Part shown: positions 19,321-35,778 of the stretch, piece by piece
Layout: each line of letters begins with the position of its first letter
Position numbering within the stretch: the first letter of the stretch is position 1
Origin: Deltaproteobacteria bacterium
GTDB taxonomy: Bacteria > Myxococcota_A > Polyangia > Fen-1088
Length of the DNA stretch: 64,000 nt
Assembly (NCBI GenBank): GCA_033763315.1
Contig: JANRKS010000005.1
Span: 205,840-269,839 of the forward strand
Direction: 5' to 3'
Position numbers and translations under genes: made by a program
Notes under the pieces: generated by a model
Seen by the model: the letters and a program-made list of their open reading frames with translations, nothing else
The model's database searches: none
What the model was told of the DNA's origin: nothing

Positions 19321-22300
19321 ATGCGCAACGGTCTTCAGCGACGTTCTGGGGTATGCGGACAAACAAAATGGCTGGCGTTGTTGCCATGCGCGGCGGTGCT
19401 TGCCGCCTGTGGAGGTGGCGGCGGTACGGTCAGCGTTGACGGTGGCGGCACTGTCTTGCCACCGGGGGTGGATGCCAACGAGATGGCTCCCTCGCCAGAC
19501 GAAGATGCGAATACCGTGTCGGGGATGGACGCCGACGACCGGGAATCAGGTGGCGTGGTTTCAGCACAGCGCCGCCCTCAGATGCTATCGGTTCCGCCGT
19601 CATTTGTGTTGACCACCGAAGAGTATTCGTACACCCCGAAGCATTCGTATGTGGGTGACACACAATGGAATGTTGTGTCTGCACCGCAGGGCGTAGCGGT
19701 GCGTGAACGCCGAGTGGTGGCGGATCCGGGCACGTTGCCGGCAGGCGATCACATGATCGTGATCGAAGCCAACGTGAACGACACAGTCGTGCGCCAGAGT
19801 TTCCCGTTGACCGTGGCGGAACCCGTGCAGCGCGCGGCTCGCCTCGTGACCTCCGATGAGCCCGCGCAGGTTTCCGTGCAATCGGAAGTGAGCCGCGTGC
19901 GGCGCTCGGCCGTGTCCGTGCCCGCCGGGGCCGTGGAGAACGACACAATCGTTTCCATCAACGAAGTGAGCCGCGTGCCCGCGCGTGCTGCGTTTAGCGC
20001 AGGCGGCCCCGTGGTTGACTTCGGCCCTTCAGGCACTGTTTTCCGCAAGCGCGCGACGGTCACGTTGCCACTTGATTCCACGACGATGGACCCAAACAAA
20101 GTCGGCGCTTTCACCTACAACACCAAAGCCGGTCGATGGGAGCCGGTCGAAGTTTTGGCCATAGACAAGCCCAACAAGCTTGTGATCGCGAAGGCGTCGC
20201 ACTTCTCGATGTACATGGCCGCGGAATCTGCCTTCGCCTTGGAAAGTTCCCTTGGGCTCATGCCGAACCCGCCGCGCTGTGAAGGCAATGTGTCCGCACA
20301 AAGCGTGCTTAAGGCGACAGACTCAGATGTTCCCGCCGCCTCTGTGAACAATCTTTCCGACGAGATGAAGGCGCTTCTGCCCGCTTCGGTTGACGCCGAT
20401 ATGGATGGCGTTCCTGAGAAGCAGGCCTCCGTTCGTGATCTGCTGTTATCAGGAAAGTTCCGCGGCACCTTGCGCTTTGTTTATGTGACGTCGTTGTTTG
20501 AAGGGGAGGAAGCGCAACGCGTGGAAGTGGGCCAACAGGCTTTGGCCGCCTCGCTGTTCGTCGGCGACGATGGCAAAGCATTGGTGACGCTGACCGACGC
20601 CGTTGGCAACGTGCTTGAATCCAAGACCTTCGCCGATGTGGCGAACAACTTGGCTGCCATGTGGCCGCGCCTCACGGGCGCTTCGTTGCACGCGATCTTT
20701 GCAGATGCACCCAAGACGGGCCTCAGCCTCGGCGCGCGCGTGCACATGATCTATTACCCCGACAACCGCACCTCCGAAGCGTTCGGCGTGGCGGATCTGG
20801 GGCAATCGCTGGTTGAAACGTCGCCAGGCGTCAGTGTTGATCCCATGGCGCGTGCCAACGATTACGACATCGACTGTGACCACTTGGTCGGCCAGTTCGA
20901 TGGCGATGACAGCCGGTTCAGCCCCGTTGTGAGCGCGACGCCTGAGGACGTCACGTCGATGTTCGTTGGCGAAACAGTACGCCTTTCGGCCACTGTGTTG
21001 AACGTGAGCTCGACCCCCGAAGCACAGTGGGACGCCGGTGGTGGCACGCTGACGCCAGCCGCGGATGACCCGGACGCCCGCCAATTCACGGCCTCGCAGC
21101 CGGGGCGATACTCGATCGTGTTCAAGGCAAAGTCTGGTACAACCGCCTTGTCGCACACGTTCGTGGTGGACGTGTCTGCGTTGCCGATCACCAACACGCC
21201 GCCGCAATGTTCCCCGCTTGCCAGCGCTGACACGGGCGTGGTGGGTGAGGTGGTTGCACTCAAGGCCTTGGTGCAAGACAAAGAATCACCAGCGGATGCC
21301 CTGACCGTGGAATGGGGGCTTTTGGATCCAGGCGCCGATCCCTTATCAACAGTCGATGATAAGTTGGTTGCTACAGGTCTTGTTGAAGGCGAGGGCATTG
21401 TTGGTACTTTGTCGCTAAAGAACGAGGGCACCTTCACAGTGGCCTGCCGTGCGTTCGATGGCAAAGTTTGGGGGGCGCCAGGCACCACGCGGGTGGCAGC
21501 GGTGGCCAAGGGCGTGAACCAAGCACCTACCGATGTGTTTCTGTCGCCTTCCGTGGCTGACTTGCTCGTGGGGCAAACGGTTCAACTTGCCTTGCGGGCC
21601 AGCGATCCTGAAGGCAAGCCGTTGACGTTCGTTTGGAAAGCAACGCTTGGAACAACCGGCGAGGACGTGCCGCTGTTGGGCGAGCCGTTTGCCATCGTGG
21701 GTGGCAGTGCAGTGGTGTTCACTGGTTCGCAGGCTGGCGTGTTTGAGGTCCGCGCCGATGTGTCCGATGGCGAATTCAAGGGCGAAACCCAGGTGGCGAA
21801 GATCCTGGTCCGGGAGAAGGCGCCCTCCAAGGTCGATATGGACCAAGACGGATTCTCGGCGGGCACAGGACCGGGCGAAGACTGCAACGACGCCGACGCC
21901 AAGATCAACCCCGGCGCCTTCGATATCTGTGGCAACGACGTGGATGAAAACTGCGACGGCGTGGTGTCAAAGGATGATTGCGACCGAGATGGTTGGAAGG
22001 TTTGTGCGGCGGGCGCTTCCGAGGGATGCGACTGCAACGACGGCAACGCGCAGGTGAGTCCCGCGGCGCGTGAGTTGTGTGACGGCAAAGACAACAACTG
22101 TGACGGCAAGGTGGACGAGAACTTTGGCGTGGGCCTCGCCTGTACCGTGGGCCTGGGTGCGTGCCAGAACTCGGGCAAAATGCAGTGTGCGCCAGATGGC
22201 CAACGGGCTTTGTGCGCTGGTGCGCCATTGGCGGCCAAGCCAGAGATTTGTGACGACGTTGACAACGACTGCGACCTGCTCGTTGACGAGGACAATATCT

Positions 22301-24948
22301 GCATCAAAGAGACCGCAGGTGTGTTCTTCAAGTGCGCTGTGCCTACGGCCACAGACGATCCCACGAAGTTCGCCAACTGTGGCGTGCTGGCCAATGAAGG
22401 CTTTCAGTTGCGCGACGACGGCGCGATCGTTTTGCTTTCCGCGCCCAAGGGTGCGATGTACTTCGATCCAAAGGCGGCCGCTTACTGCTGGTACAACCAA
22501 GGCACGTGGCGGCTGCGCGACTCTAAGTCGATGCTCGTGAATTTGCCCGATAGCCAAGGGCAAACGTCGAACGATGTCGTGGACATCCTGTCGCGCAGCG
22601 TTGACCGAATGACGATCGGCTTTGCGAATCCAGGGCCGAATATGGCCAAGATCCAGGACAACCGCCGCATCGCCGAAAAGACCACAGGCAAGTGCGATTT
22701 TGATCCGCGTTGCTCTTCACGGCCAGAGGTGTGTAACGGCGTTGACGACGATTGCGATGGCAAGGTCGATGAGGATCTTTCATGCCCCGCTACGTGTGAC
22801 AAAGATGGCAGAGACAACAACAACAACGGCAAGGTTGACGAGCCAGGCGAGCCTTGTGCACCCGCTTGCGACATGGACAAGGTTGACAACAACGGCAACG
22901 GGGTTGTCGATGAGGCGGGTGAGCAGTGCTCTGCCCCACCTGTGGCGTGTGACAAAGATGGCAAGGACAACAATCTGGACGGCAAGGTCGACGAGGCCGG
23001 TGAGCCGTGTTCCCCGCCATGCGACAAGGATCGCATCGACAACAACGGCAATGGCGTGGTGGATGAGTCTGGTGAGGTGTGTGGCCCTGCCGCGGCTTGT
23101 GACAAAGATGGCAGGGACAACAACAACAACGGCAAGGTTGATGAACCAGGTGAGCCTTGTGCACCGGCTTGCGACATGGACAAGGTTGACAACAATGGCA
23201 ACGGCGTTGTGGACGAAACGGGCGAGGCCTGTGGCCCAGCGGTGGGTTGTGACAAGGACGGCCGCGACAACAATGGCGACGGCAAGATCGATGAGCCCGG
23301 CGAGCTATGCGGCGGAACGTCTGTGGAGTGCGACCGAGACGGGCGTGACAACAACAATGACGGCCGCATTGATGAACTGGGCGAGCCCTGCGCGCCGCCG
23401 TGCGACGCTGACAAAATCGACAACAACGGCAACGGCATGGTGGATGAGGCGGGCGAAATGTGCGGCCCCGTTACAGCCTGCGACAAAGACGGACGCGACA
23501 ACAACAACAACGGCAAGGTTGACGAGCCAGGCGAGCCTTGCGCACCCGCATGCGACATGGATCGCATAGACAACAATGGCAACGGCACTGTGGACGAAGC
23601 GGCCGAGCCATGTGGTCCCGCGGTTTCGTGTGACAAGGACGGCAAAGACAACAACGGCAACGGCATGGTGGATGAAGCTGGCGAAGCTTGTGGTCCCGCT
23701 GTCGCGTGCGAAAAGGACGGCCGCGATAACAACAACGACGGACGAGTTGATGAAGCCGGTGAGCCGTGTGCACCACCATGCGACGCTGACAAGATCGACA
23801 ACAACGGCAACGGCATGGTCGATGAAGCCGGCGAGGCTTGTGGCCCACCTGTTTCGTGTGACAAGGACGGCAAAGACAACAACGGCAACGGCATGGTGGA
23901 TGAAGCCGGCGAAGCTTGTGGTCCCGCTGTCTCATGCGAAAAGGACGGCCGCGATAACAACAACGACGGTCGAGTTGATGAAGCCGGTGAGCCGTGTGCA
24001 CCACCATGCGATGCTGACAAGATCGACAACAACAGCGACGGTCGAGTTGATGAAGCCGGCGAGGCTTGTGGCCCGGCCGTGTCGTGCGACAAGGACGGCC
24101 GCGACAACAACGGCAACGGGATGGTGGATGAAGCCGGCGAAGCTTGTGGCCCACCTGTGTCGTGCGACAAAGATGGTAAAGACAACAACGGCAACGGCAT
24201 GGTCGATGAAGCTGGCGAGCCGTGTTCTGGCCCTGTGAGCTGCGACGCTGACAAGATCGACAACAACGGCAACGGCATGGTCGATGAAATCGGCGAGGCC
24301 TGTGGTCCGGCCGTGTCGTGTGACAAGGACGGCAAAGACAACAACGGCAACGGCATGGTTGATGAGCCAGGCGAGCCGTGTGTTGGCCCACCTGTGTCGT
24401 GTGACAAGGACGGCAAAGACAACAACGGCAACGGCATGGTGGATGAAGCCGGCGAGCCCTGTTCTGGCCCTGTCACGTGCGAGGCGGATCGCATCGACAA
24501 CAACGGCAACGGGATGGTGGACGAACCGGGTGAGCCATGCAATGCGCCCCAATACTGTGACAAAGATGGCAAGGACAACAACGGCAACGGCATGGTCGAT
24601 GAAGCCGGTGAAGCTTGTGGTCCGGCCGTATCGTGCGACAAGGACGACAAAGACAACAACGGCAACGGCATGGTGGATGAGCCAGGCGAGCCGTGTGTTG
24701 GTCCACCCGTGTCGTGCGACAAAGATGGTAAAGACAACAACAACAACGGCATGGTCGATGAAGCCGGCGAGCCATGCAATGCGCCCCAATACTGCGACAA
24801 GGACGGCATCGACAACAACGGCAACGGGATGGTGGACGAACCTGGCGAGCCATGCAATTCGCCTCAATACTGCGACAAGGACGGCAAAGACAACAACGGC
24901 AACGGCACGGTCGATGAAGCCGGAGAGCTTTGCGGTCCCATCAGCTAA
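19321..24948 (+). CDS. Giant (1875 aa) surface lipoprotein: Ig-like/beta-sandwich N-terminal half, canonical MopE-type metal-binding motifs, then 28 tandem Cys-Asp-Asn-rich MopE-like/Ca-binding-like modules
   Basis: Signal plus lipobox 'WLALLPCAAVLAACGGGGG'. Canonical PF11617-like units 'CNDADAKINPGAFDICGNDVDENCDG', 'CDGKDNNCDGKVDE' and 'CDDVDNDCDLLVDED' (aa ~840-1000). From nt 22795 there are 28 repeats of 'CDKDG[KR]DNN[GN]NGMVDE[AP]GE[AP]C' alternating with 'CD[AM]DKIDNNGNG' variants. Confidence 0.8.
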   Translation: MRNGLQRRSGVCGQTKWLALLPCAAVLAACGGGGGTVSVDGGGTVLPPGVDANEMAPSPDEDANTVSGMDADDRESGGVVSAQRRPQMLSVPPSFVLTTEEYSYTPKHSYVGDTQWNVVSAPQGVAVRERRVVADPGTLPAGDHMIVIEANVNDTVVRQSFPLTVAEPVQRAARLVTSDEPAQVSVQSEVSRVRRSAVSVPAGAVENDTIVSINEVSRVPARAAFSAGGPVVDFGPSGTVFRKRATVTLPLDSTTMDPNKVGAFTYNTKAGRWEPVEVLAIDKPNKLVIAKASHFSMYMAAESAFALESSLGLMPNPPRCEGNVSAQSVLKATDSDVPAASVNNLSDEMKALLPASVDADMDGVPEKQASVRDLLLSGKFRGTLRFVYVTSLFEGEEAQRVEVGQQALAASLFVGDDGKALVTLTDAVGNVLESKTFADVANNLAAMWPRLTGASLHAIFADAPKTGLSLGARVHMIYYPDNRTSEAFGVADLGQSLVETSPGVSVDPMARANDYDIDCDHLVGQFDGDDSRFSPVVSATPEDVTSMFVGETVRLSATVLNVSSTPEAQWDAGGGTLTPAADDPDARQFTASQPGRYSIVFKAKSGTTALSHTFVVDVSALPITNTPPQCSPLASADTGVVGEVVALKALVQDKESPADALTVEWGLLDPGADPLSTVDDKLVATGLVEGEGIVGTLSLKNEGTFTVACRAFDGKVWGAPGTTRVAAVAKGVNQAPTDVFLSPSVADLLVGQTVQLALRASDPEGKPLTFVWKATLGTTGEDVPLLGEPFAIVGGSAVVFTGSQAGVFEVRADVSDGEFKGETQVAKILVREKAPSKVDMDQDGFSAGTGPGEDCNDADAKINPGAFDICGNDVDENCDGVVSKDDCDRDGWKVCAAGASEGCDCNDGNAQVSPAARELCDGKDNNCDGKVDENFGVGLACTVGLGACQNSGKMQCAPDGQRALCAGAPLAAKPEICDDVDNDCDLLVDEDNICIKETAGVFFKCAVPTATDDPTKFANCGVLANEGFQLRDDGAIVLLSAPKGAMYFDPKAAAYCWYNQGTWRLRDSKSMLVNLPDSQGQTSNDVVDILSRSVDRMTIGFANPGPNMAKIQDNRRIAEKTTGKCDFDPRCSSRPEVCNGVDDDCDGKVDEDLSCPATCDKDGRDNNNNGKVDEPGEPCAPACDMDKVDNNGNGVVDEAGEQCSAPPVACDKDGKDNNLDGKVDEAGEPCSPPCDKDRIDNNGNGVVDESGEVCGPAAACDKDGRDNNNNGKVDEPGEPCAPACDMDKVDNNGNGVVDETGEACGPAVGCDKDGRDNNGDGKIDEPGELCGGTSVECDRDGRDNNNDGRIDELGEPCAPPCDADKIDNNGNGMVDEAGEMCGPVTACDKDGRDNNNNGKVDEPGEPCAPACDMDRIDNNGNGTVDEAAEPCGPAVSCDKDGKDNNGNGMVDEAGEACGPAVACEKDGRDNNNDGRVDEAGEPCAPPCDADKIDNNGNGMVDEAGEACGPPVSCDKDGKDNNGNGMVDEAGEACGPAVSCEKDGRDNNNDGRVDEAGEPCAPPCDADKIDNNSDGRVDEAGEACGPAVSCDKDGRDNNGNGMVDEAGEACGPPVSCDKDGKDNNGNGMVDEAGEPCSGPVSCDADKIDNNGNGMVDEIGEACGPAVSCDKDGKDNNGNGMVDEPGEPCVGPPVSCDKDGKDNNGNGMVDEAGEPCSGPVTCEADRIDNNGNGMVDEPGEPCNAPQYCDKDGKDNNGNGMVDEAGEACGPAVSCDKDDKDNNGNGMVDEPGEPCVGPPVSCDKDGKDNNNNGMVDEAGEPCNAPQYCDKDGIDNNGNGMVDEPGEPCNSPQYCDKDGKDNNGNGTVDEAGELCGPIS
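22795..24945 (+). repeat. Coding tandem repeat array, about 28 units of 66-75 bp (higher-order ~132-141-bp AB periodicity), with near-identical copies toward the 3' end
   Basis: Repeated DNA strings such as 'gacaaggacggcaaagacaacaacggcaacggcatggtggatgaagccggcga' recur many times in frame. The reverse strand yields long artefactual ORFs. Confidence 0.9.
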
Positions 24949-24972
24949 GATGATGTGAAACAGGCAGCGACC

Positions 24973-24992
24973 ACGCACGGCCCGTGCGTTTT
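24973..24992 (+). terminator. Weak candidate intrinsic terminator after the giant lipoprotein gene
   Basis: 'GCACG gccc CGTGC' short hairpin followed by GTTTT, 25 nt after the stop. Confidence 0.3.
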
Positions 24993-25040
24993 AGATCGGC
25001 CGTTTACCAACCGGGCGACGCGCGATAAGGTGCGGCAGCG

Positions 25041-25613
25041 ATGCGGCACCTTCGTGCGTGTTTTGGATTGCGTCATCTGCGCGTTTTGGCGTTCGGGTGT
25101 CTCGTGCGTTCATTGGCCTCACCAGCACACGCGGCTGACGCCCCTCCTGCTGCCGCGGGTTCCGAAGCGCTTGGCGGATCGGAAGCCGCGCGTGAGCTGT
25201 GGGCGGCGCAGACCGAGTTCGAGCGCCAACGGAAGAGCCCCGCGCTTGGGTTTGCGCTTGAGCTTGCGTTGCCGTCGCTGGGCAACTTCTACGCGCGTGA
25301 ACCGGAAGAAGGCACGTTGACGTTGACGGGCCTATTGATTGGCGGCTTCTTCTTGGCTGATGGTTACGGCTTGGTGTGCGAAACGTTTAAGCACGACGAC
25401 TCTGGCTGCAAACGCAAAACGTTCAGTCTGGTGCAAGGCTGGATCTTCGTGGTGGGCAGCCGTCTGTATGGCCTGACCAGCGCGCCCATGAATGTTGCGC
25501 GCTTCAATCGCGCTTTGCGTGCGCGCCTGGGCGTCGATGCCGCCTGGTCAATGAATGTGGTGCCATGGTTGGGCCCGCGGAACGCGGGCCTCGCGTTGGC
25601 GCTACGGTTCTGA
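25041..25613 (+). CDS. Hypothetical secreted/membrane protein
   Basis: Signal peptide 'MRHLRACFGLRHLRVLAFGCLVRSLASPAHA' and one internal hydrophobic segment 'LTLTGLLIGGFFLADGYGLV'. No domain recognised. Convergent with the giant ATPase gene. Confidence 0.35.
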   Translation: MRHLRACFGLRHLRVLAFGCLVRSLASPAHAADAPPAAAGSEALGGSEAARELWAAQTEFERQRKSPALGFALELALPSLGNFYAREPEEGTLTLTGLLIGGFFLADGYGLVCETFKHDDSGCKRKTFSLVQGWIFVVGSRLYGLTSAPMNVARFNRALRARLGVDAAWSMNVVPWLGPRNAGLALALRF

Positions 25614-25646
25614 GCTGGAGCTGGGGGGCCCTAACGGGCTGAGTGG

Positions 25647-28600
25647 CTACCGCACGTCGTCTGGCTGGCGTAACGCAGCGAGCAGCTGCTCGATCTTCTG
25701 CTCCAACGCACGACGATCTTCTAGGCTGCGAGCCGCCGCGCGCACAAGCGGGATCAGCGTGCGTTCAACGATCGCCACTTGCTGCCCCAACGCTTCTTCA
25801 ACGCCGCGAGGCGCCTCGGTTTGCACGGTGAGATTCACGGGGCGCTTCTCCATCGCATGCAAGATGGCGTCGAGGCGGCCCAGGTGATCGGCCAGCCAAT
25901 GCGGCAACCCATCGCCATCTTTCTTTTCCGTGGCGGTGGTTGTGGCACGCGGCTTTTCAAGCGCGCTGCGAATGCCTTGCAGTTGGCCGCCCAGATCTGA
26001 AAGTTGCCCCGTGACCCGGGTGACGGGATCGTCTTCGGCTCCACCCAGTTTTTTCACGCGAACAAATTCGTGCTTGATGTCGTTCCACCGCTTGGCTTGC
26101 GTGGGCGATAGGGTGCCGCGCAACTCCGCCAGCTTTAGCAAATTGGTTTCCGCGCCCGTGGTCAACGTTTGTGCCTCACCCACGTAGTGATCCTCAATCA
26201 GCCGATCCAGCTCCTCGGGCGTCATCGCGCCCACAACCTTCTCGGCAAGCTTGCTCATGTTGCGGTAACTGCCTTGCAGCTTGAACGGAGGCTCCGTGCG
26301 GAACTTATCGTCGGTGGAAGCAGACGCGATGTATTGCTGGTTCACCCGCAGCAGGGTTTTCTGCACCACCATCAGGCGCTCAAGCACGGCCTTGATGTCC
26401 GCAAGTTCCACCGCCGCATAACCGTGGCTTAGATCCGTGGTGGCGAGCACCTCGCCTTGCGCCATGCGGATCAATTTATAAATGTCGGCTTGGTCGCGCG
26501 TGGCAAGCGGCGCCAAAACGGGGTTTGATGTGATTGCGTTTTCAATGTAGCTCAGTGCAAAAACATCGTCTTTGCCCGAGAGAATGTCACCCAGATTGTA
26601 GGTGTCGGCACGGTTCGCGAGCATGTCGGGAATTTGGAAGCGATCTCCCGATTCGGTGTAGGGGTTGCCCGCCATCACCACGCAAAAACGTTTGCCGCGC
26701 ATATCATACGTGCGCGTGCGGCCCTTCCACACGCCTTCGATGCGGCGTTGAGCGTCGCACAGCGAAATGAACTTTTGCAGTAGCTCCGGGTGCGTGTGCT
26801 GGATGTCGTCGAGATAAAGCATCACGTTGTTGCCCATCTCCAACGCCAAGTTGATCTTCTCCACCTCTTGGCGCGCGGTGGCGTTCGGCGCTTCTTCGGG
26901 ATCGAGCGATCGCACCTCGTGCCCAAGCGAAGGGCCATTGACCTTCATGAACACCAGACCCAGGCGGCTGGCCACATACTCCATCAACGTGGTTTTGCCG
27001 TATCCCGGTGGGGAGATCACCAGCAGCAAACCCATCAGATCGGTGCGCTTCTTTTCGCCGGCGGCACCCATCTGTTTGGCGAGGTTGTCGCCCACGAGCG
27101 GCAAATAGACTTCGTTGACCAAGCGGTTGCGCACGAAAGACGTCAACACGCGCGGTTTGAACTCGTCTAGCCGCAACCGCGTACGCTCGCGTGCAAGCAA
27201 GGCCTGCCTTTGTTGCTTGTAATCGGCAAAGCCCGGCACGCGCTCGCTCACAAACCGTTGCAGCCGTGGCAAGAATTCATCAAGGCGCAGGCGTAAGGTG
27301 CCGTTCTCGATGCGCGGGTGGTTGCCCAACAAACCCGTGACTTCCGTCATCGTCCGCGCTGTCGAGGTGCCGCGGTCGAGCGTGCGTTCGGTGAGCAAGA
27401 GCGCCGCGACCTCTGGTGCAAAATGGGTTGCGTGGGCGTCTTGGTCGCCGGGGTTGGGGCGCGCCACGAACGCATCGATCCACGCGCGTGCCACGGCCAA
27501 GCGCGCCGCCAAATCGTCTTGCAGTGAGCGAAGGTCTTCTTCGAAGGCCAAACGTTGACCGCTGCGATCCAAATGCGCGGCGAAAGCCTCGCGAATGCTA
27601 AACGCCTCATGACTGCACACGAACCGAGGTTGCGTGGCCGCCAACTCTTCGATGAGGTACCTCGCTGCTGCAGGTGCCACGTCGGTCGCGCCGCGATCAG
27701 GCAGTTTCGCGGCGAAGGTGGCCACGGCGGTTTGCAGCTCTTGCGCCAGCTCCTCGTGCGCGCGCGTGGGACCCAACAGCGCGCGCAACCGTGCCAGGCT
27801 TCCGGCCTGCCGGTGCCACTTGTCGAGCGCCGAGGCTTCCACGCCTTCGGCCCAAAACAACGTGGCCAACGCCCGCGCCTGCGGCGAAAACCGCAGCAAC
27901 CCGGCCGCTTGTCGCAGATCCAGCAGCTTTTCGAGAATCGCCGTGGCATCCGCATCGTGCACGCCGCGTTCGTAGCCCTCGTCGTAACGTGAGGCCGCCG
28001 CTTTGCGCACGTGCTCTTGCAGCCCGCCTGGCGACAACCGCGCCTCTTGCAGCGCTGCAACAGACAGATTGCCTTGCCCCGCTTCCGCCGCAAACAGCAT
28101 ACTCGCCGCCAGGTATTCGCCGCGGTAGACATCGCTGGTCTCCGAAGCCAACGTTTGGCTCCAGTAGGGGCGCGTGGCGGCGAACGCCGTGTCCGTCACC
28201 GCTTCACGATAGTCAGTCCCGGTGACGGCAAGGGCCATCGCTTCACCTTCAGCCTGCGGCACCAGCGTCAGGTCCAGCGGCTGCGTGTTGACCGTGAACT
28301 TGTGTTTGCCTAGACGAATGACATTGTCGCCGTCTTCGTAAAGATCCAGCTTGTCCTTCAGGCCACGCAGCGCTTCTTGTTGGGCGCTTTTGACCTTCGA
28401 GCCGAGTTCGTCGGCGCGCGTGCCTTCGCCCAGCTCAACCAGGCGCACAGCGAGCTCGCGCACCTTCAAGATCATCGGGTCCGCGGCGAAGTAACCGTTC
28501 AATTCGTCCACGCTCTTGAGCGTTTGTGCGCGCCGACCCACGCCCTGCAAGATGCGTTCGGCGGCGGACATCAAATTCGCCGCGCGCCGTTGCCGCTCGT

Positions 28601-30905
28601 CGAGGAGACGCTGCTTTTTTTGGTTTAGCGCTTCGTAAACCTCTTCGCGCTTTCCCGCGAGCACCGTCAGGTATTCGTCGAATTCAGAGAAGCGCGACTC
28701 CAGCTCCTCCATCTGCACCATCAAACGCGAAAGCTGCTCGTCACACGCTTGCGGTGTTTCGGCCATGCCCACCGCGCTGCTCACGCTCTGTCCGAACAGT
28801 TTGAATTGCGCCGCGAACTCAGCCTCGCCTTCGCCTTTGAGCAAGGTTTTGCGACGCGCTTCCACCGTGGCGCGCAGACGCCCCCACTGCCCAAAGGCTT
28901 CCGAGATGCGCTCTAAAATATTGGTGCGCACGGTGGGATCCTCCACCTTCAACCCACCCACCACTTCTGAAAGCACGTTGAGGCCGGCGTTGAGGGCCTC
29001 CGCTTTTTCGGCCAGTGGCGCCAACGCGCGCGTCTTTTCGACGCTGGCCACCTGATCCACAAGCTGATTGATCTCCGCCAACACAGGCGTGAACGCATCG
29101 TCTTTCAGCAGGAATCCAACGGCGGCGCCGCTGACACGTTCGAACGCTTGCACGCTGGCGGCTTCAAGCGCTTCCACCCCCTGCACCTGTATATACCGCA
29201 CCTCTTTGAGGCCGATCAGGTGACCACGTTGGGCGCGTAACTTTCCAAGCGCCTCCATAAACGGGGCCACGGTGGTCCAGGTATCGGGCCGCAACGTTTT
29301 GAACAGCGCTTCTTGTTGCTCCTGCGCTTCGCTGAATTGTTTCTGCGCCTGCGCCTGCAGCGCCTGCACCTTCTCGAATTCATCCACCACCAGCTCGGCG
29401 GTGTGGCGAATGGCCTGCAGCGGCGCCAGCAAGTGGCTGCCATCGCTGAGCAGCTGGGCGTCGCCCAACCAGTGGTGCAGATCCATCGTTCGCCCCACGT
29501 GCGCGATGAGATCTTCATAGATGCGGCGGGTGGGCTGCGTGTCCTGCACCAAGCGGCGCACCGTCAAGGCATCGGAAATGCCGCGCACCAAAGCGGCGTT
29601 GCCGATCTTGCCCAACGGCCCCGTGACTTTCGGGGCGCGCGCTGCGGCTTCATCGGAAAGAAACGGCGTGGTCCACACTTGCATCGGATGCACGCGCGTG
29701 GGCTCTTGCGATTCCGCGCGGAACACCATCATGCGGCCGTCTTCGAACAAGCTGTAACCGTGGCACCGAATGGGCGTCGATACGCGTTTTTCGATCAGGT
29801 TGTAGACCAGCAGGATGTAAAGCCCATCGTGCCGCCGGTGAAACACATAAAGCACGTCTTCGCCATTCGGCGCGCGCACGCTGCGCTCGAACTCAAGATC
29901 GGAAAAATCGCCCTCAAAGACCTTGTGTTGGCCGTCTTGCAGGTAATAGCCGCCCGGAAAGATCACGCCGTGATCTTCAGGCAGTTCGACGCACGAATGC
30001 CCGATGGCGTCGATGCGCACCACTTTTTGCGATCGCGTGGCAAACACCAAATAGCGAAACGCCTTTTCATTAAACGGCAGGACCTTCAGCAGCACCAACG
30101 TGCCGACTTTTGCGTAGAAGATGTCGGCGTCGTCCAACGCTTGGCGTGGATCGTCCACCGGCTCGCTGTAAATGCCTTCGCCGTCTTCGGTGTTGTTTTC
30201 CACCTTCACGGTTAACGTGCCGCTCACGGTCTCCACGAACAGCGTGTTCAGAATGTTCGCGTGCGGGTGCGTGCCACTGACGTGTTGATCGCGCGTCACC
30301 TCCACCCATTCGAAGGTGTGTTGGGGCGGAAAAACAAAATCACGCTCACCCCGGTTGTCGATGTAGGAAGGCACGCCATCACGGCCCACGCCCCAGCGAA
30401 ACACGCGCAGATCCGTGGCGTTGGGCCCCATGCGGAACACGGCCAAGAGCTTGGTGTCGGTGCGCGATAACTTCGTGAGCCGCGCGTGCTTGTAATACTT
30501 ATAAAGTTCGGCAAAGTCGCTTGCGAACCGCGGCTCGCGAATCAGCGCGGCGCTGGCGTCGTTGCTGGCCACAGGCACCAGATCCAGCTCGCCTTCCACG
30601 GGCTCGAAGCGATGCACGCTGAACACGTCGGCCACGGTGGTTTCGGTCTTGAGGCCCAAAAACACGTTGTAGCCAAACAGCAAATCGTTGCCCACCGTTA
30701 CGATGTCGGCGGGCACACAGTTGTTTTCGGTGCGCGCGCGGTGGGTGGAAGCCAGCACCAATTCAGTGCTGCCAAAAGCCTGCTTACGCGCTTGATTCAA
30801 CGCCTCGGCGATGCGGCCAAGCGTGCCCGCCTGTTCCACCAAGCGGGCGCGGATCACCTCATAGCCATCGCCGATGGCGGCGGGCGGTTGTTCTGATGCG
30901 GCCAT
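25647..30905 (-). CDS. Giant (1752 aa) multidomain protein with an AAA_5 (MoxR/dynein-related) ATPase domain; uncharacterised beta-rich N-terminal domain, long alpha-helical/coiled-coil middle and C-terminal regions
   Basis: Walker A 'LLLVISPPGYGKTTLMEYV', Walker B 'NVMLYLDDIQH', and 'FCVVMAGNPYTESGDRFQIPDMLANRADTY' (AAA_5 sensor/Arg-finger region) at about aa 1290-1480 (nt ~26460-27040). The first ~480 aa are beta-rich; several hundred residues are heptad-like. The ATG lies 12 nt after the flotillin stop. Confidence 0.8.
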   Translation of the reverse strand: MAASEQPPAAIGDGYEVIRARLVEQAGTLGRIAEALNQARKQAFGSTELVLASTHRARTENNCVPADIVTVGNDLLFGYNVFLGLKTETTVADVFSVHRFEPVEGELDLVPVASNDASAALIREPRFASDFAELYKYYKHARLTKLSRTDTKLLAVFRMGPNATDLRVFRWGVGRDGVPSYIDNRGERDFVFPPQHTFEWVEVTRDQHVSGTHPHANILNTLFVETVSGTLTVKVENNTEDGEGIYSEPVDDPRQALDDADIFYAKVGTLVLLKVLPFNEKAFRYLVFATRSQKVVRIDAIGHSCVELPEDHGVIFPGGYYLQDGQHKVFEGDFSDLEFERSVRAPNGEDVLYVFHRRHDGLYILLVYNLIEKRVSTPIRCHGYSLFEDGRMMVFRAESQEPTRVHPMQVWTTPFLSDEAAARAPKVTGPLGKIGNAALVRGISDALTVRRLVQDTQPTRRIYEDLIAHVGRTMDLHHWLGDAQLLSDGSHLLAPLQAIRHTAELVVDEFEKVQALQAQAQKQFSEAQEQQEALFKTLRPDTWTTVAPFMEALGKLRAQRGHLIGLKEVRYIQVQGVEALEAASVQAFERVSGAAVGFLLKDDAFTPVLAEINQLVDQVASVEKTRALAPLAEKAEALNAGLNVLSEVVGGLKVEDPTVRTNILERISEAFGQWGRLRATVEARRKTLLKGEGEAEFAAQFKLFGQSVSSAVGMAETPQACDEQLSRLMVQMEELESRFSEFDEYLTVLAGKREEVYEALNQKKQRLLDERQRRAANLMSAAERILQGVGRRAQTLKSVDELNGYFAADPMILKVRELAVRLVELGEGTRADELGSKVKSAQQEALRGLKDKLDLYEDGDNVIRLGKHKFTVNTQPLDLTLVPQAEGEAMALAVTGTDYREAVTDTAFAATRPYWSQTLASETSDVYRGEYLAASMLFAAEAGQGNLSVAALQEARLSPGGLQEHVRKAAASRYDEGYERGVHDADATAILEKLLDLRQAAGLLRFSPQARALATLFWAEGVEASALDKWHRQAGSLARLRALLGPTRAHEELAQELQTAVATFAAKLPDRGATDVAPAAARYLIEELAATQPRFVCSHEAFSIREAFAAHLDRSGQRLAFEEDLRSLQDDLAARLAVARAWIDAFVARPNPGDQDAHATHFAPEVAALLLTERTLDRGTSTARTMTEVTGLLGNHPRIENGTLRLRLDEFLPRLQRFVSERVPGFADYKQQRQALLARERTRLRLDEFKPRVLTSFVRNRLVNEVYLPLVGDNLAKQMGAAGEKKRTDLMGLLLVISPPGYGKTTLMEYVASRLGLVFMKVNGPSLGHEVRSLDPEEAPNATARQEVEKINLALEMGNNVMLYLDDIQHTHPELLQKFISLCDAQRRIEGVWKGRTRTYDMRGKRFCVVMAGNPYTESGDRFQIPDMLANRADTYNLGDILSGKDDVFALSYIENAITSNPVLAPLATRDQADIYKLIRMAQGEVLATTDLSHGYAAVELADIKAVLERLMVVQKTLLRVNQQYIASASTDDKFRTEPPFKLQGSYRNMSKLAEKVVGAMTPEELDRLIEDHYVGEAQTLTTGAETNLLKLAELRGTLSPTQAKRWNDIKHEFVRVKKLGGAEDDPVTRVTGQLSDLGGQLQGIRSALEKPRATTTATEKKDGDGLPHWLADHLGRLDAILHAMEKRPVNLTVQTEAPRGVEEALGQQVAIVERTLIPLVRAAARSLEDRRALEQKIEQLLAALRQPDDVR

Positions 30906-30917
30906 GGGCAGCCGGCC

Positions 30918-33083
30918 TTACTCGAGCCCCAGATCCTGCGCTTGCTTGACCAAACGCTCAAGCGCCGTGCGTTTGCTGCCATCAGAGGCCGAGATGACGT
31001 GGTTTAGCGCGGCCACAATGCTGAGGTTCTTGATGGCATCGGTGCCCACAGCGGGGCGGGTGAGCACGTCTTTGATGTCGGCGCGCAAGCTGCTTTGCCC
31101 CGAAGTGTATTCGCCCGCCAAGTGCGCCAAAGTTTCGCTGTTGGCCAGGGCGCCATCCACCGCGTGCCCCAAAGACACGGCCTTGAAGAATTTATCGAGG
31201 AACTGGCCATCACCACCCACGATGTTGATCTTGGCTTCGGCCAGGGCCTTGCCCATGACTTCGGCCTGTTGTTCGGACATCGACACGCGGGTTTTGAGTG
31301 TTTGCAGCGCCACTTCGGTTTGTTTTTCAAGCCGCAGCCGAAACTCTTCGTGTTCACGAGCGTCGCCTTTGAGCAGCTGCATGGCTTCGGTCTTTTGCGC
31401 CAAACCATGTGCTTCGGCTTCCATCCGCGCTCGAATCGCCGTGGCGTCAGCTGCGCCTGTGCGTTCGGTGGCCGCGGCGTTGGCTTCTTTGACCCGCACC
31501 GTGGCCAGACCCTGGGCTTCCACGCCCGCGGCCTCGGCCGACAACATCAATCGCTTGGCGTCCGCCTCGGCTTGGCCCAGCTTCGCCACCGCGCCCGCTT
31601 CGGCCTCGCGGCCTTTCGCTTGCGCCTGCATTTGCTCCATCGTCACGCGCGCCTGTGCCATGCCCACCTTTTCGGTGGCCACCGCGTCGGCTTCCTTCAC
31701 GCGCACCTGCGCCAAGCCTTCGGCCGCGGCCTCGGCCTGCACACCTTCGGCGATGCGCAGCTTCGCGCGTGCCGTGCGATCCGCGGCTTCGAGATCGGCA
31801 TCCGCCTTGGTGATCGCCTGTTTGGCTTCGTATTTGGCCACCTCGGTCTGCGCCTCAGCCTGCTTGAGCTTAAGCACCACTTGCTCCTGCGCTTTGCCCT
31901 CGGCGGTAATCACATGCGCGTCCTTCTGGCGTTTGGCTTCAGCCAGCAGGCGAATGTCTTTGATGCGCTCTTCTTCTTCCGCCACCTGCTTTTCAACGGC
32001 GATGCGCCCCGACACCACATCGGCGATCACTTTGCGTTCCACTTCCAGCGCTTTTTCCTTCTCGATGCGCTGCAGTTCCACTTGACGCTCGCGCGAGATG
32101 GCTTCAAGGTCGCGATCCTTGGTGACGCGTTCGTTTTCCACGGCCACCACGCGCTCGCGGTTCTTCGCGGCCACTTCCACCTGCCGTTTGCGGTTTTCAT
32201 CCGCGATCGCAACTTCTTCTTCCTGGCGAATGCGAGCCACCTCGGCCTTTTGCTTTTCTTCGGCCTGTACGCGCATGGTTTCAGCTTGCTCACGCGCTTG
32301 AATGCTCAAAATCTCACGCTGCTGGCGCGCCTGCGCGTCGGCGCGTTGCCGCTCCAGCTCAAAGATGGCCTCAGCCGATTCCACGTTCTTTTTCGTGATG
32401 GCCTTGAGCTCCTCTTGCTTTAGATCGTTCGTGCTCACCTTCTGGGCGGCGGTGATTTCCGTGATCTTGCGGATGCCTTGCGCGTCCAAGATGTTGCTGG
32501 GATCCAGCACTTCCAGCGGCGTTTGCTCGAGGAAATCGATGGCGGCGTCGTCAAGCACATAACCATTGAGATCTCGGCCAATGACGTCGATGATCTGGTC
32601 GCGGAACTCATCGCGCTTTGTGTAAAGCTCTTCAAACTCCAAGCGCTTGCCCACAGTCTTGAGCGCTTCGGAAAACTTCGCCACGAACAGCTGTTCAAGC
32701 GTGTCGGCGTCGGAGGCGCGCACGCACCCGATCGACTGCGCGACCTTCAGGACGTCTTCGGCCGTTTTGTTAACACGCACGAAAAATGTGACACGAATGT
32801 CGGCGCGGATGTTGTCTTTGCAGATCAACCCTTCTTTGCCCTTGCGGTCGATTTCGATGGTGCGCACCGAGATGTCCATGACCTCAGCCCGGTGCAAAAC
32901 GGGAATCACCACCGCGCCCGTGAAGGTGACCGTGGGCTCACTTTTGAGCGTGTTGACGATAAGCGCCCGGCCTTGATCCACCTTGCGGTAGAACCGCGTG
33001 ACGAATAAACCCACGGCGAAGAGCAGCACAAAAGCGCCCCCGCCGATCAACAACGCCGCTTGCAAAGTTCCGTTCAGTTCCAT
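30918..33083 (-). CDS. Flotillin-family SPFH/Band 7 protein (YqiK-like), 721 aa with an expanded EA-rich coiled-coil
   Basis: N-terminal TM plus 'FYRKVDQGRALIVNT...AVVIPVLHRAEVMDISVRTIEI...GLICKDNIRADIRVTFFVRVNKTAEDVLKVAQSIG' (SPFH), and 'LFVAKFSEALKTVGKRLEFEELYTKRDEF'. Long Glu/Ala-rich coiled-coil with internal duplications ('GLAQVRVKEADAVATE' and 'GLATVRVKEANAAATE'). Confidence 0.85.
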   Translation of the reverse strand: MELNGTLQAALLIGGGAFVLLFAVGLFVTRFYRKVDQGRALIVNTLKSEPTVTFTGAVVIPVLHRAEVMDISVRTIEIDRKGKEGLICKDNIRADIRVTFFVRVNKTAEDVLKVAQSIGCVRASDADTLEQLFVAKFSEALKTVGKRLEFEELYTKRDEFRDQIIDVIGRDLNGYVLDDAAIDFLEQTPLEVLDPSNILDAQGIRKITEITAAQKVSTNDLKQEELKAITKKNVESAEAIFELERQRADAQARQQREILSIQAREQAETMRVQAEEKQKAEVARIRQEEEVAIADENRKRQVEVAAKNRERVVAVENERVTKDRDLEAISRERQVELQRIEKEKALEVERKVIADVVSGRIAVEKQVAEEEERIKDIRLLAEAKRQKDAHVITAEGKAQEQVVLKLKQAEAQTEVAKYEAKQAITKADADLEAADRTARAKLRIAEGVQAEAAAEGLAQVRVKEADAVATEKVGMAQARVTMEQMQAQAKGREAEAGAVAKLGQAEADAKRLMLSAEAAGVEAQGLATVRVKEANAAATERTGAADATAIRARMEAEAHGLAQKTEAMQLLKGDAREHEEFRLRLEKQTEVALQTLKTRVSMSEQQAEVMGKALAEAKINIVGGDGQFLDKFFKAVSLGHAVDGALANSETLAHLAGEYTSGQSSLRADIKDVLTRPAVGTDAIKNLSIVAALNHVISASDGSKRTALERLVKQAQDLGLE

Positions 33084-33684
33084 CGTTAATCCCGTCCGTG
33101 TTTCGTGCCGGTGCTACGCCCGTCCATTTATCGGCGTTCTTGGCGCCAAGTTGTGGGAAAAAATCATTCCTGCGGAGCGAATTTGAACTTGGAGGCGGGG
33201 CTCCGAAGCCCCCGACACCGAGTCGGCCGCCAGACAGGGCGAAGGCTGATATCGAAGGACGGGTGGCGGCTGCGGTTGGGACGTGGTCCCGGCGCATGTT
33301 GTCAGATTGTGACGTGCGGCCCCAGCGCGGTTTGCTTCACTTGACCGATGACGGCGCAAAGGTGTTTGTTGTTGGTCCTTATGTCGGCTTGTGGCGATGC
33401 CGCCGGTGTCGCAGTGACGTCGCCATCCACGGACGCGCAGAGACGGGGGGGCCTCGCGCTGATCTACCGAGCGCCCACCGCGCCCACCGCACGAAGGGCG
33501 CCAGCCAGTTTGGAACGCGCCGAACAACACGCCGAAAACTTCTCTAACGAAGGCTTTGTTGAGGTTCCGCAACAAACCGGCGGAGCGATCCTAGATTTGT
33601 CGGGCCGGTTCAGACACCAATCTAGGTTGCAAATCACGCCAAGCGGGTCGACTGCAATCGGGTGCGAACGCGAAAGTCATCTAC

Positions 33685-34923
33685 ATGCGAAGTGAAGGCG
33701 CGAGGTTGGCGATCCTGGCTGTGCTCACGCCGCTCTTGCAATCCCCATTTGCTGACGCATACGCCGCGACAATCACCATCGTGAACCGCGATGGGCCCGG
33801 CGAAGGCTTTAACGATCCGTCCCCGTTTACGGCGGCGGGCGACAACGTGGCTGCGACGTTGGGGCAGGCGCGGCTCAATGCCTTTTCTTACGCGGCGAAG
33901 CTTTGGGGCGCCCGGTTGGTGAGCAAGGTGGAGATCAAAGTGGACGCCCAGATGAACCCGCTTGACTGTGGATTAACCTATGCGGTGATCGGCAACGCGG
34001 GCCCCAACACCGTCGATCGCGATTTTCCCCGCAACGACCCTGCTTATGCACCACCGCGTCCCAACACTTGGTACGCGCAGGCCGTGGCGAACGCCATTGC
34101 CGGCTTCGATCGAACAGCAACCCTTGCGGAGATCTCAGCTGAATTTAACAGCTCGTTGGGCGCCGGAACCTGCGCCCCCACAACAAGCTGGTACTTGGGC
34201 CTTGATGGGCGCGGCGCTTCCAACCAATTGGATCTTGTATCGGTGGTGTTCCACGAATTGGGTCATGGCCTTGGCTTTTCATCCTTCCTTGACCAATCTA
34301 GCGGGGCGAAACTCTCCGGTCGTGACGACGCCTTTACCAATGGCCTCATGTTGGAGGGAGCCGTGCCGGCCGCATTGTCAGCGATGACCGACGCACAACG
34401 ACTGTCTGCCATGACAGGCGATCCGAATCTGACTTGGTCCGGCAACGCGACGGCCGTCTACCTGCCTCGCCCTACGGCCGGACAAACGAATGGACGCGTC
34501 CGATTGCATGCCCCGAACCCGGTCGAGTTCGGATCTTCTGTGGGGCACTTCAGCGCCGCGCTTGCGCCGAACGAACTCATGGAGCCCTATTACAACGGTG
34601 CCAACCACAAGATGGGGTTGGCTTTGCCCGTTTTGAACGACGTCGGTTGGTTGGTGATTCCCGCCACCGTGCCTGACCACTGTCTAAGCGCGCTCACCGC
34701 CAGCAGCGATCTCGACAACGACGGCGTGGTGGACGTCTGCGACAATTGCCCCCAGGTGAGCAATCCGTCGCAAAGCGATGCGGACGCCAATGGCCAAGGC
34801 GACGCGTGCCCTTCCTCGAACGTGAAAAGCGTCCCCGCCACCGATCCTTGGCATCTGGGTCTGCTCGGCTTCGGGTTGCTGTGGCTCGGTATGGTTTCTC
34901 GTGGCCGTCGGTTCAGCGCCTGA
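33685..34923 (+). CDS. Secreted HExxH zinc metalloprotease with C-terminal thrombospondin-type-3-like Ca-binding repeat and PEP-CTERM/MYXO-CTERM-like anchoring tail
   Basis: Signal peptide; 'VVFHELGHGLGFSSF' (HExxH); 'DLDNDGVVDVCDNCPQVSNPSQSDADANGQGDAC' (TSP3-like); terminal 'PATDPWHLGLLGFGLLWLGMVSRGRRFSA' (hydrophobic segment plus basic tail). Confidence 0.65.
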   Translation: MRSEGARLAILAVLTPLLQSPFADAYAATITIVNRDGPGEGFNDPSPFTAAGDNVAATLGQARLNAFSYAAKLWGARLVSKVEIKVDAQMNPLDCGLTYAVIGNAGPNTVDRDFPRNDPAYAPPRPNTWYAQAVANAIAGFDRTATLAEISAEFNSSLGAGTCAPTTSWYLGLDGRGASNQLDLVSVVFHELGHGLGFSSFLDQSSGAKLSGRDDAFTNGLMLEGAVPAALSAMTDAQRLSAMTGDPNLTWSGNATAVYLPRPTAGQTNGRVRLHAPNPVEFGSSVGHFSAALAPNELMEPYYNGANHKMGLALPVLNDVGWLVIPATVPDHCLSALTASSDLDNDGVVDVCDNCPQVSNPSQSDADANGQGDACPSSNVKSVPATDPWHLGLLGFGLLWLGMVSRGRRFSA

Positions 34924-34954
34924 GACCAGTTCAGGCGTCGCGCCAAAGCCAGGT

Positions 34955-35674
34955 TCACGCCGGGTTGTTCGTCGCCAGCCCCGCGTCCAAGCGCTCCACC
35001 TCGTAGGCGTGCAGCTCAGCATTCCATGACACCAGCACCACCCGGTCGCCGCGCGCCAGGCCGTTGCCGGTTGCCGCACGCACCTCCACGATGAGCCCAG
35101 CGCCGCCGTCGTCGACCTTGGCTTGCCCAAAGCGCGCGTCCACCTTTCCGGTGGAGATGACACCCATCTTGCCGATCACCTGCGCCCGCGTGGGTGCCTC
35201 ATGCACCTTGAACAGCGGCCGCAGGGGGCGGCAAAGAAGTCCCGCGATGGGTAACGACAGCACAAAAACCACAACCATCAACAGGCTGCCGCGCAGAAGT
35301 GGCAACGCACCGGTCACCTTGATTGCGAAGTAACAGCCCCAAAAATTCAGCAGCACCAATGCGGTGCCGAGCACCGTGAGGGGCACCTGCCGCAAACCCA
35401 GTTTCCCCAGCAAGCCCGCGGCATCGCTGATGTGCACGTGATGGGTGTCCCCCCCGACGGCCGTGGCGGCCGCATGTGCACCGTCAGCCGCGGCGTGTGC
35501 CGCATGAAATACAGCATCAGCGGCGTGTGCCGAGGCATCTGTCGCACCATGCATCCCATCCACATCCAGGGCGCCGCCGGCCACCAGCAACCAGTAGAGG
35601 ATTACAAAGCCCAGAGCCACCGTCCACAACACGGTTGGATACACGAGCGACGCCGCGAACAAGGTCATCAACAT
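34955..35674 (-). CDS. NfeD/YqiJ-like membrane protein (DUF1449-type: N-terminal TM segments plus C-terminal OB-fold)
   Basis: 3-4 TM helices, a His/Ala-rich loop, and C-terminal 'GKMGVISTGKVDARFGQAKVDDGGAGLIVEVRAATGNGLARGDRVVLVS' typical of the NfeD OB-fold that partners SPFH proteins. Confidence 0.6.
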   Translation of the reverse strand: MLMTLFAASLVYPTVLWTVALGFVILYWLLVAGGALDVDGMHGATDASAHAADAVFHAAHAAADGAHAAATAVGGDTHHVHISDAAGLLGKLGLRQVPLTVLGTALVLLNFWGCYFAIKVTGALPLLRGSLLMVVVFVLSLPIAGLLCRPLRPLFKVHEAPTRAQVIGKMGVISTGKVDARFGQAKVDDGGAGLIVEVRAATGNGLARGDRVVLVSWNAELHAYEVERLDAGLATNNPA

Positions 35675-35778
35675 GTCGTCGACGAATATATCGCACGAGT
35701 GTGCAAGCGCGATCGATCATCGCTCTTCACGAAAGCCACTGTTCTTTTTGCACAATTGTTCTGATAACATCGTGTTCC

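Follow-up and report, generated by a model that had tools for sequence, protein, structure and literature searches.

Homologs of the first two genes of the operon considered here are known from the NfeD2-SPFH2 operons yqiJ-yqiK of Escherichia coli and yuaF-floT of Bacillus subtilis, and the complete operon, giant AAA+ ATPase included, has been described by Ravi et al. (mSystems 2024; PMC11237479, section 19), who reported the same operon and ATPase architecture and also noted widespread 'abbreviated operons' without PspA. We analysed a locus of this kind in a 64,000-nucleotide (nt) stretch of DNA from a Deltaproteobacteria bacterium (contig JANRKS010000005.1, positions 205,840 to 269,839), which is referred to here as the window. 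In it, a minus-strand open reading frame (ORF) at 25647..30905 begins with an ATG and encodes an ATPase of 1752 residues plus stop, which is 100% identical to GenBank MDX2019569.1, 'MAG: DNA repair ATPase [Deltaproteobacteria bacterium]'. The protein is one more member of a family that is catalogued, computationally described and experimentally uncharacterised, and as such is real but not new. The three genes of the module in the window are as follows (coordinates, strand and description, with the basis of each assignment in brackets):

25647..30905, minus strand: giant AAA+ ATPase gene (ORF, identity to MDX2019569.1)
30918..33083, minus strand: YqiK-type flotillin of 721 amino acids (aa), with a transmembrane (TM) anchor, SPFH/Band_7 domain, Glu/Ala-rich helices and a C-terminal IVGGDG motif (Pfam, PDB search, BLASTP)
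34955..35674, minus strand: YqiJ/NfeD2-type membrane protein of 239 aa, the first gene of the conserved module (hhalign, Pfam, PDB search)

The flotillin stop codon lies 12 nt ahead of the ATPase ATG on the same strand. The flotillin has an N-terminal TM anchor and an SPFH/Band_7 domain (Pfam Band_7 on aa 1–201, E = 5e-13), is homologous to E. coli YqiK (BLASTP 27% identity over 428 aa, E = 5e-36) and also matches human flotillin-1 (PDB 9l3g, E = 4e-4). The 239-aa protein combines a multi-TM N-terminal half with a C-terminal NfeD-like OB domain, and its homology to YqiJ was seen when a profile of 31 family sequences was aligned with the E. coli protein (hhalign 95.3% probability, E = 2.3e-8); Pfam YqiJ_N is matched by ten of these 31 members, and the top PDB match of the family, B. 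subtilis YuaF (2k14), is weak (E = 0.74). At full length neither protein was recognised by Pfam or NCBIfam, and their identification needed sub-domain searches and profile comparisons with authentic E. coli sequences.

The window shares its ATPase architecture and its flotillin and YqiJ partners with the system of Ravi et al., the full forms of which (with a CesT/Tir-like protein, PspA and sometimes PLD/HKD) were re-found among the relatives of the window protein. In contrast to these, the operon in the window is of the abbreviated kind, with PspA, YjfI and PLD genes all missing from the 64 kb, and a gene on the opposite strand lies between its yqiJ-like and flotillin genes. This plus-strand gene (33685–34923) breaks an otherwise tight operon, and its product matches the Pfam thrombospondin type-3 repeat TSP_3 (8e-8) and, weakly, NCBIfam models for a metalloprotease family and the MYXO-CTERM protein MtsC. 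The same yqiJ–flotillin junction holds more than 500 bp of extra DNA in six of 59 related loci, all from Myxococcota.

Family distribution and operon linkage

An earlier sequence-only reading of the ATPase gene had considered its architecture unusual, but the family is large and has already been catalogued by Pfam as DUF3686 plus DUF7902 and named 'DNA repair ATPase' by PGAP. The window protein matches DUF3686 on aa 30–478 far above the gathering score (E = 1.8e-199, 663 bits against a cut-off of 25, profile positions 3–448 of 448) and DUF7902 on aa 603–686 (E = 2e-25, 89 bits), and has the single C-terminal AAA+ module with its motifs, the flotillin directly upstream and the YqiJ-type gene nearby that mark the family. 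A word-indexed search returned 6148 clusters at E ≤ 1e-5; among the 120 matches listed, all have the same Pfam architecture, are 1658–2044 aa long and are called 'DNA repair ATPase' wherever they are named. When the N-terminal 480 residues were used in an exhaustive HMMER search, 722 clusters were recovered at the 50%-identity level (256 of them with E ≤ 1e-30). DUF3686 stands at the N terminus of nearly all full-length proteins among them (about 1590–2036 aa) and the shorter matches look like fragments, so the domain is essentially restricted to the giant-ATPase architecture. DUF3686 has no established function, and the N-terminal region is not thereby placed in a family of known role; no papers were found in a literature search for DUF3686, PF12458, DUF7902, PF25472, IPR020958 or 'DNA repair ATPase' together with flotillin.

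The layout is common to thousands of homologs in at least six phyla. A scan of one genome per species with peptide patterns recovered at least 575 relatives, from Myxococcota, many Gammaproteobacteria, Planctomycetota, Bradymonadia and others, and further relatives are present in plasmid databases from Streptomyces, Nonomuraea, Deinococcus, Hymenobacter, Halomonas, Vibrio, Photobacterium, Proteus and the Pseudomonas fluorescens megaplasmid pQBR103. The same peptide patterns found no relatives in 2.9 million viral contigs.

We compared gene context in 81 related loci by clustering the neighbouring ORFs within 5 kb of the module and scanning the recurrent families with Pfam. In 72 of the 81 loci the gene immediately ahead of the ATPase gene, on the same strand, is a flotillin homolog, and the median flotillin-to-ATPase gap is 56 nt; of the remaining nine loci, five have less than 1.3 kb of sequence ahead of the ATPase gene and four are true solo copies. 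A YqiJ-like gene accompanies the ATPase in 65 loci, in most of them as the immediate upstream neighbour of the flotillin gene, and in 20 loci, nearly all of them gammaproteobacterial, DUF2170/YjfI (E = 3e-50) and PspA/IM30 (E = 6e-47) genes precede yqiJ; the addition of a YjfI/Tir-chaperone gene and PspA is seen in Gammaproteobacteria and Bacteroidota. Downstream, a rhomboid gene occurs in 16 loci, a zinc-ribbon gene in 14 and a PLD-family (PLDc_2) gene in seven. The operon context, which had played no part in the sequence-only reading, is the decisive evidence.

RefSeq annotation of individual loci gives the same picture. On a Hymenobacter plasmid the order is 'chaperone Tir', PspA, DUF1449, a hypothetical protein and 'DNA repair ATPase', and in Streptomyces a flotillin gene comes directly before the ATPase gene, a position occupied in Deinococcus by an unannotated hypothetical protein of flotillin size. 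The order on pQBR103 (L083, NC_009444.1 84437–97641) runs YjfI, PspA, rhomboid, DUF2491, DUF350, DUF1190, a glutathionylspermidine-synthase-like gene, a hypothetical gene, SPFH and 'DNA repair ATPase'. We note that this ten-gene version also ties the ATPase to polyamine-type PspA operons.

Flotillins linked to the ATPase are 100–200 aa longer than E. coli YqiK, which in K-12 is preceded by yqiJ and followed by no ATPase gene. They have in common a C-terminal block, HEEFRLxLE ... AKInIVGGDGxFFDxFxKAvSxGxxvDG (aa ~560–721 of the window flotillin, 30918–31400, minus strand), which does not align with E. coli YqiK as a single outgroup lacking an ATPase partner, and which is a candidate docking site.

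Gene fusions were also considered as Rosetta-stone evidence and set aside. The apparent flotillin–ATPase fusion in one related locus (L080) has an internal stop and is not a true fusion, and three metagenomic NfeD/flotillin–ATPase fusions (P0194, P0229 and P0256) are chimeric, with frame-shifted low-complexity stretches and internal deletions, and are probably artefacts of assembly or gene calling.

The remaining genes around the module look unrelated to it. Convergent with the ATPase gene at its 3' end is an 1875-aa ORF (19321–24948, plus strand) in which Pfam finds three putative metal-binding motifs of the MopE type (Cu-binding_MopE, 2.9e-19); as this ORF occurs in only two of the 81 related loci it is not part of the module. 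Beyond it lie a U32 collagenase-like peptidase (15867–18353, plus strand) and a PA14-domain protein (14451–15302, plus strand), and on the other side an ammonium transporter (36247–37599, minus strand), a Ser/Thr protein kinase (37743–38819, plus strand), homologs of which are found at varying positions in 11 related loci, and a Na+/H+ exchanger (40478–41824, plus strand). Consensus scans of 24900–35900 for promoters and terminators found no more sites than in shuffled sequence.

Domain anatomy and the AAA+ module

Two AlphaFold2 monomer models were made from a 77-sequence alignment, one of aa 1–720 and one of aa 700–1752 (mean predicted local distance difference test scores, pLDDT, of 88.4 and 86.3, respectively). 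Together with the domain searches they give the following layout, in order from the N terminus:

30774..30866, minus strand: N-terminal 31-residue helix, aa 14–44, ahead of the propeller (AlphaFold2 DSSP)
29472..30818, minus strand: DUF3686, aa 30–478, with a beta-propeller-like core at aa 50–415 and then capping helices to ~480 (Pfam, AlphaFold2, Foldseek)
28326..29465, minus strand: helical-bundle region, aa 481–860, 85% helix with only three helices of more than 40 residues (Pfam, AlphaFold2)
28848–29099, minus strand: DUF7902, aa 603–686, inside the helical-bundle region (Pfam)
28191..28325, minus strand: small beta subdomain, aa 861–905 (AlphaFold2)
27381..28190, minus strand: globular all-helical region of short helices, aa 906–1175 (AlphaFold2)
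27285..27380, minus strand: second small beta element, aa 1176–1207 (AlphaFold2)
27036..27284, minus strand: long helix (aa 1208–1244) and linker helices to the AAA+ core, aa 1208–1290 (AlphaFold2)
26571..27035, minus strand: AAA+ alpha/beta core, aa 1291–1445 (Pfam, AlphaFold2, Foldseek, conservation)
26991..27014, minus strand: Walker A, S1298-PPGYGK1304-T1305 (motif search)
26799..26819, minus strand: Walker B, L1363-YLD1366-D1367-IQ (motif position, alignment)
26688..26744, minus strand: predicted pre-sensor-1 beta-hairpin, about aa 1388–1406 (RIEGVWKGRTRTYDMRGKR) (AlphaFold2 DSSP)
26604..26675, minus strand: aa 1411–1434, MAGN1414PYTESGDRFQIPDMLANR1432AD, with candidate residues for the sensor-1 Asn (N1414) and the arginine finger (R1432) (inferred motif assignment)
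26106..26570, minus strand: helical lid and post-lid region, aa 1446–1600 (AlphaFold2, alignment)
26256–26273, minus strand: invariant motif EPPFKLQGSYR1548NM, candidate sensor 2 (alignment)
25650..26105, minus strand: helical tail, aa 1601–1752 (AlphaFold2)

This layout retains most of the anatomy proposed from the sequence, namely an N-terminal beta domain, a long helical middle, one AAA+ module and a helical tail, but not the coiled coil of about 800 aa that had been likened to the stalks of dynein, SMC or dynamin-like proteins. The N-terminal domain is an independent, beta-propeller-like one, as had been suggested; it corresponds to DUF3686 and matches the propellers of prolyl-oligopeptidase, YncE, WD40 and PON1 proteins in Foldseek (E 3e-6 to 1e-3), and the ~29 predicted strands of the core are consistent with roughly seven blades. 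The middle (aa 481–1290) is instead made up of 29 mostly short helices, the longest of 51 residues, with the two small beta subdomains and only ~175 heptad-like residues, as judged by a crude home-made heptad scan together with AlphaFold2 secondary structure. The region at aa 906–1175 is among the less conserved of the structured parts (38% mean identity), and in the tail the linkers 1651–1667 and 1688–1700 are poorly conserved and modelled with low confidence. No TM segment was found in the ATPase (maximum Kyte–Doolittle 19-mer score 1.38), and because of this the protein is predicted to be soluble and cytoplasmic. We also note that the propeller (aa 50–415; 29661–30758, minus strand) carries an unusually high density of invariant polar and acidic residues, including HPH 213–215, K234-x-E236-x-N238-T239 and P346-NGEDV-351, and this suggests a site for a specific ligand or partner.

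There is one P-loop motif in the 1752 residues and one AAA fold in the models, in keeping with the single AAA_5 unit (Walker A SPPGYGKT, Walker B YLDDIQ) that had been recognised before, and the alpha/beta core is the most conserved part of the protein, with a mean identity of 83% over 24 diverse members across phyla compared with 38–54% in the other structured domains. The motifs are not degenerate in the manner of a pseudo-ATPase. ISPPGYGKT, DDIQH, AGN1414PYTE, PDMLANR1432AD and LQGSYR1548NM show no variation across six phyla, with relatives compared from Myxococcota, Gammaproteobacteria (Pseudomonas pQBR103, Proteus and Vibrio), Actinomycetota, Deinococcota and Bacteroidota, and the Walker motifs, although non-canonical, look functional. 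The roles of N1414 as sensor 1, R1432 as arginine finger and R1548 as sensor 2 are candidate assignments made from motif position. As R1432 would act in trans and is invariant in PDMLANRAD, the earlier suggestion that the protein oligomerises is plausible.

The affiliation of the module within the AAA+ superfamily is less easily judged from similarity. Matches of aa 1292–1417 to generic AAA Pfam models are weak, the best being AAA_5 (27–30 bits against a cut-off of 22, with the top match of 30.3 bits covering 123 of 139 profile positions). Foldseek matches of the AAA region in the PDB are likewise all weak (13–18% identity); RuvB chains give the best E-value (5e-5), and NorQ and CbbQ the best target-normalised TM-scores (0.55–0.62), followed by Skd3/ClpB, MCM and dynein. 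Sequence similarity to solved proteins is limited to ~35–45 residues round the P-loop and is equal for NVL, Rix7, p97 and RuvB, and no clade could be assigned from PDB sequence and profile searches as these gave P-loop-only matches. In profile comparisons with E. coli proteins, RuvB aligned at 95.7% probability but over 44 columns round the P-loop only, and authentic RavA reached 8.6% over 83 columns from Walker A to Walker B, making the MoxR/RavA comparison of the sequence-only reading a weak one.

In the AlphaFold2 model the Walker B helix is followed by a hairpin (aa 1388–1401) ahead of the sensor-1 strand, and such a pre-sensor-1 hairpin is a typical feature of the RuvB/Clp/MoxR/MCM/dynein half of the superfamily. 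No helix-2 insert hairpin is predicted, the stretch from beta2 to helix 2 being modelled, at high pLDDT, as a loop that contains short helical turns. The loop after beta2 is an invariant NGPSLGHEV with no aromatic pore-loop residue, which argues against a classical polypeptide-threading pore and fits a remodeller. Within the pre-sensor-1-hairpin group we regard the module as an AAA+ lineage of its own and not as a MoxR member, because its similarity to solved proteins is confined to the P-loop and the RavA alignment is so poor.

Four other affiliations were examined and found unsupported. Membership of the classical AAA clade (p97, Vps4, FtsH and katanin) is contradicted by the absence of an aromatic pore loop 1 and by the Pfam AAA match, which covers only positions 1–72 of 131, and that of the RuvB or DNA repair motors by scores below cut-off (RuvB_N 19–22 bits against 27; NCBIfam RuvB 19 bits against 282) and by the membrane-gene neighbours. 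The single P-loop and AAA fold do not fit a dynein- or midasin-type multi-AAA giant, nor do the short helices and few heptad-like residues of aa 481–1290 fit an SMC-like or long coiled-coil stalk, with the PADLOC LmuB match (E = 0.007) restricted to the helical region.

Proposed function and alternative explanations

Flotillins and PspA are central to the organisation of membrane microdomains, survival of envelope stress and antibiotic tolerance in bacteria, and the source of energy for building, clearing and recycling their assemblies is a gap for which the giant AAA+ ATPase is an obvious candidate, because it sits in a flotillin operon in hundreds of species and has a core so highly conserved across phyla. 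Ukleja et al. (2024; PMC11222466) reported that unfolded (membrane) proteins are stabilised by flotillin with NfeD in the absence of ATP, and a 2025 review (PMC7619361) states that an ATPase of the Vps4 kind to regulate the dynamics of ESCRT-III/PspA 'appears absent in bacteria'; for these two reasons an AAA+ partner encoded in the same operon plausibly supplies the missing activity. We consider a functional link between the ATPase and the flotillin likely, and the ATPase is probably the part of a bacterial membrane-maintenance machine that consumes energy. Our best overall reading, to which we give an even chance, is that it is a cytoplasmic, oligomerising AAA+ remodeller of flotillin and PspA assemblies, and the remodelling mechanism itself is put forward a little more tentatively than this.

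The ATPase would be the ATP-hydrolysing subunit of a conserved module that leads from a YqiJ/NfeD2-type membrane protein to a YqiK-type flotillin and on to the giant AAA+ protein, and which in other phyla is extended upstream by a YjfI/CesT-Tir-like chaperone and PspA of the ESCRT-III family. A ring is the most likely assembly of the single AAA+ module, and in it R1432 would complete the active site of the neighbouring subunit; the propeller and helical-bundle regions may provide a docking and spacer part for recognition of the cytoplasmic flotillin cage, the YqiJ partner, PspA polymers or the client proteins bound to these. Through ATP turnover the ATPase would then assemble, disassemble or unload these membrane-associated assemblies, in a mode like that of Vps4 on ESCRT-III or of MoxR-type chaperones and unlike that of a polypeptide-threading unfoldase; the data establish how the domains are laid out, how conserved the motifs are, which family the protein belongs to and that it is linked to the operon, and we infer its oligomerisation, its physical contact with PspA or flotillin and the direction in which it would remodel them. 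A more specific version, which we regard as somewhat unlikely, would have the ATPase as the missing bacterial counterpart of Vps4, driving the disassembly or recycling, at the inner membrane, of flotillin cages and of PspA polymers of the ESCRT-III type, with the invariant acidic-rich propeller acting as a sensor of the assembled or stressed state or of a small cationic ligand such as a polyamine, the latter being proposed because polyamine genes share the pQBR103 operon.

Several observations weigh against a remodeller of flotillin and PspA. The window has no PspA gene, and solo ATPase genes with several kb of upstream DNA and no adjacent flotillin or yqiJ gene are found in Sorangium cellulosum (L001), a Polyangiaceae MAG contig (L014) and Methyloprofundus (L059 and L063). 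Conversely, E. coli and many other bacteria run yqiJK without a giant ATPase. The invariant Asp-Asp of the Walker B, in place of Asp-Glu, makes slow or regulated hydrolysis possible, as in a nucleotide switch instead of a motor, and we found no experimental work on any family member in the literature.

The name 'DNA repair ATPase', given in GenBank/PGAP and in the Pfam description of DUF3686, implies a protein acting on DNA like RuvB or an SMC-type protein, and the best Foldseek E-value and the profile alignment with RuvB could be taken to agree with this. However, the 44 aligned columns at the P-loop are matched equally well by NVL, Rix7 and p97, Pfam and NCBIfam searches showed no domain for DNA binding and none of the nuclease or helicase kind, the conserved neighbours encode membrane proteins with no DNA-metabolism gene among them, and we found no paper linking the family to DNA repair; such a role is extremely unlikely, and the name, which is without support, is probably misleading. 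Conflict systems often include large NTPases that have propeller or repeat domains, and the family is carried by plasmids and megaplasmids (pQBR103, Streptomyces, Deinococcus and Hymenobacter), so the ATPase might also be considered the NTPase of an anti-phage or conflict system in which a flotillin/YqiJ membrane sensor activates it and, in some versions, a PLD-family (HKD) effector, for which the downstream PLDc_2 genes (seven loci) and rhomboid genes (16 loci) would be counted in favour. Yet the core three-gene module has no effector, the 83% identity of the AAA core across phyla is unlike that of fast-evolving defence genes, and the recurrent partners (PspA, the YjfI chaperone and polyamine genes) are envelope-stress genes. 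Nor did the ATPase have a significant match in PADLOC-DB, where the best (E 0.004, mad8, P-loop only, to 0.04) involved P-loop or helical segments only and the flotillin had no match, and the peptide patterns that gave at least 575 genomic relatives gave none among the viral contigs. We consider a conflict system very unlikely.

There are two further explanations which we think quite unlikely and to which we give the same weight. The ATPase might serve one particular client protein as a MoxR-type chaperone, maturing it or inserting its cofactor (as RavA–ViaA, CbbQ–CbbO and NorQ–NorD do), with the flotillin only providing localisation. AAA_5 is the best Pfam match, NorQ and CbbQ give the highest target-normalised TM-scores, there is no aromatic pore loop, and the motif NPxExxGxxFxxPxxxxxR resembles the sensor-1 to Arg-finger region of MoxR/AAA_5 proteins; against this, the RavA alignment reached only 8.6%, the ATPase is four to six times larger than MoxR proteins and is predicted to have no helix-2 insert hairpin, and clustering of neighbours in the 81 loci gave no recurring gene besides YjfI, PspA, rhomboid, zinc-ribbon and PLD (although small clusters were not scanned with Pfam and no search was aimed at a VWA partner). 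Alternatively, ATP binding might control the oligomerisation of a large rod-like protein which tethers flotillin cages to another cell structure, as a nucleotide-gated scaffold or switch and not a motor. About 1290 residues are non-ATPase protein-interaction modules, and the Asp-Asp Walker B followed by IQ is also found in DnaA-type switch ATPases, but none of the candidate residues for sensor 1, Arg finger and sensor 2 varies, which points to selection on hydrolysis and not only on binding.

The result for the window is itself ordinary, and the value lies in the family, as a very large and highly conserved AAA+ protein tied to flotillin/PspA biology under a misleading database name. The question of its function is testable in tractable hosts, including P. 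fluorescens SBW25 with pQBR103, Proteus mirabilis, Vibrio campbellii and Streptomyces.

Comparison with known AAA+ systems

When compared with other AAA+ systems, the ATPase shares with RuvB the P-loop likeness and, as predicted, the pre-sensor-1 hairpin fold, but nothing beyond the P-loop aligns, and there is no RuvA/RuvC context and no DNA-related neighbour. The MoxR proteins (RavA, CbbQ and NorQ; Pfam AAA_5/AAA_3) are the closest to the AAA core by Pfam and TM-score, they have the pre-sensor-1 hairpin that is predicted for the ATPase, and both lack an aromatic pore loop; however, they are only about 300–500 aa long compared with 1752 aa, and the RavA profile match is weak. The likeness to Vps4 and ESCRT-III of archaea and eukaryotes is one of working only, in that an AAA+ ATPase is genetically coupled to ESCRT-III-family PspA at the membrane in the extended operons, whereas the window ATPase is not of the classical AAA clade, has no detected MIT domain and has no PspA in the window. 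Finally, the giant ATPase differs from FtsH–HflK/C in having no protease domain or TM segment and a partner that is of the flotillin and not the HflK/C type of SPFH protein, but both systems pair an AAA+ machine with an SPFH-family cage protein.

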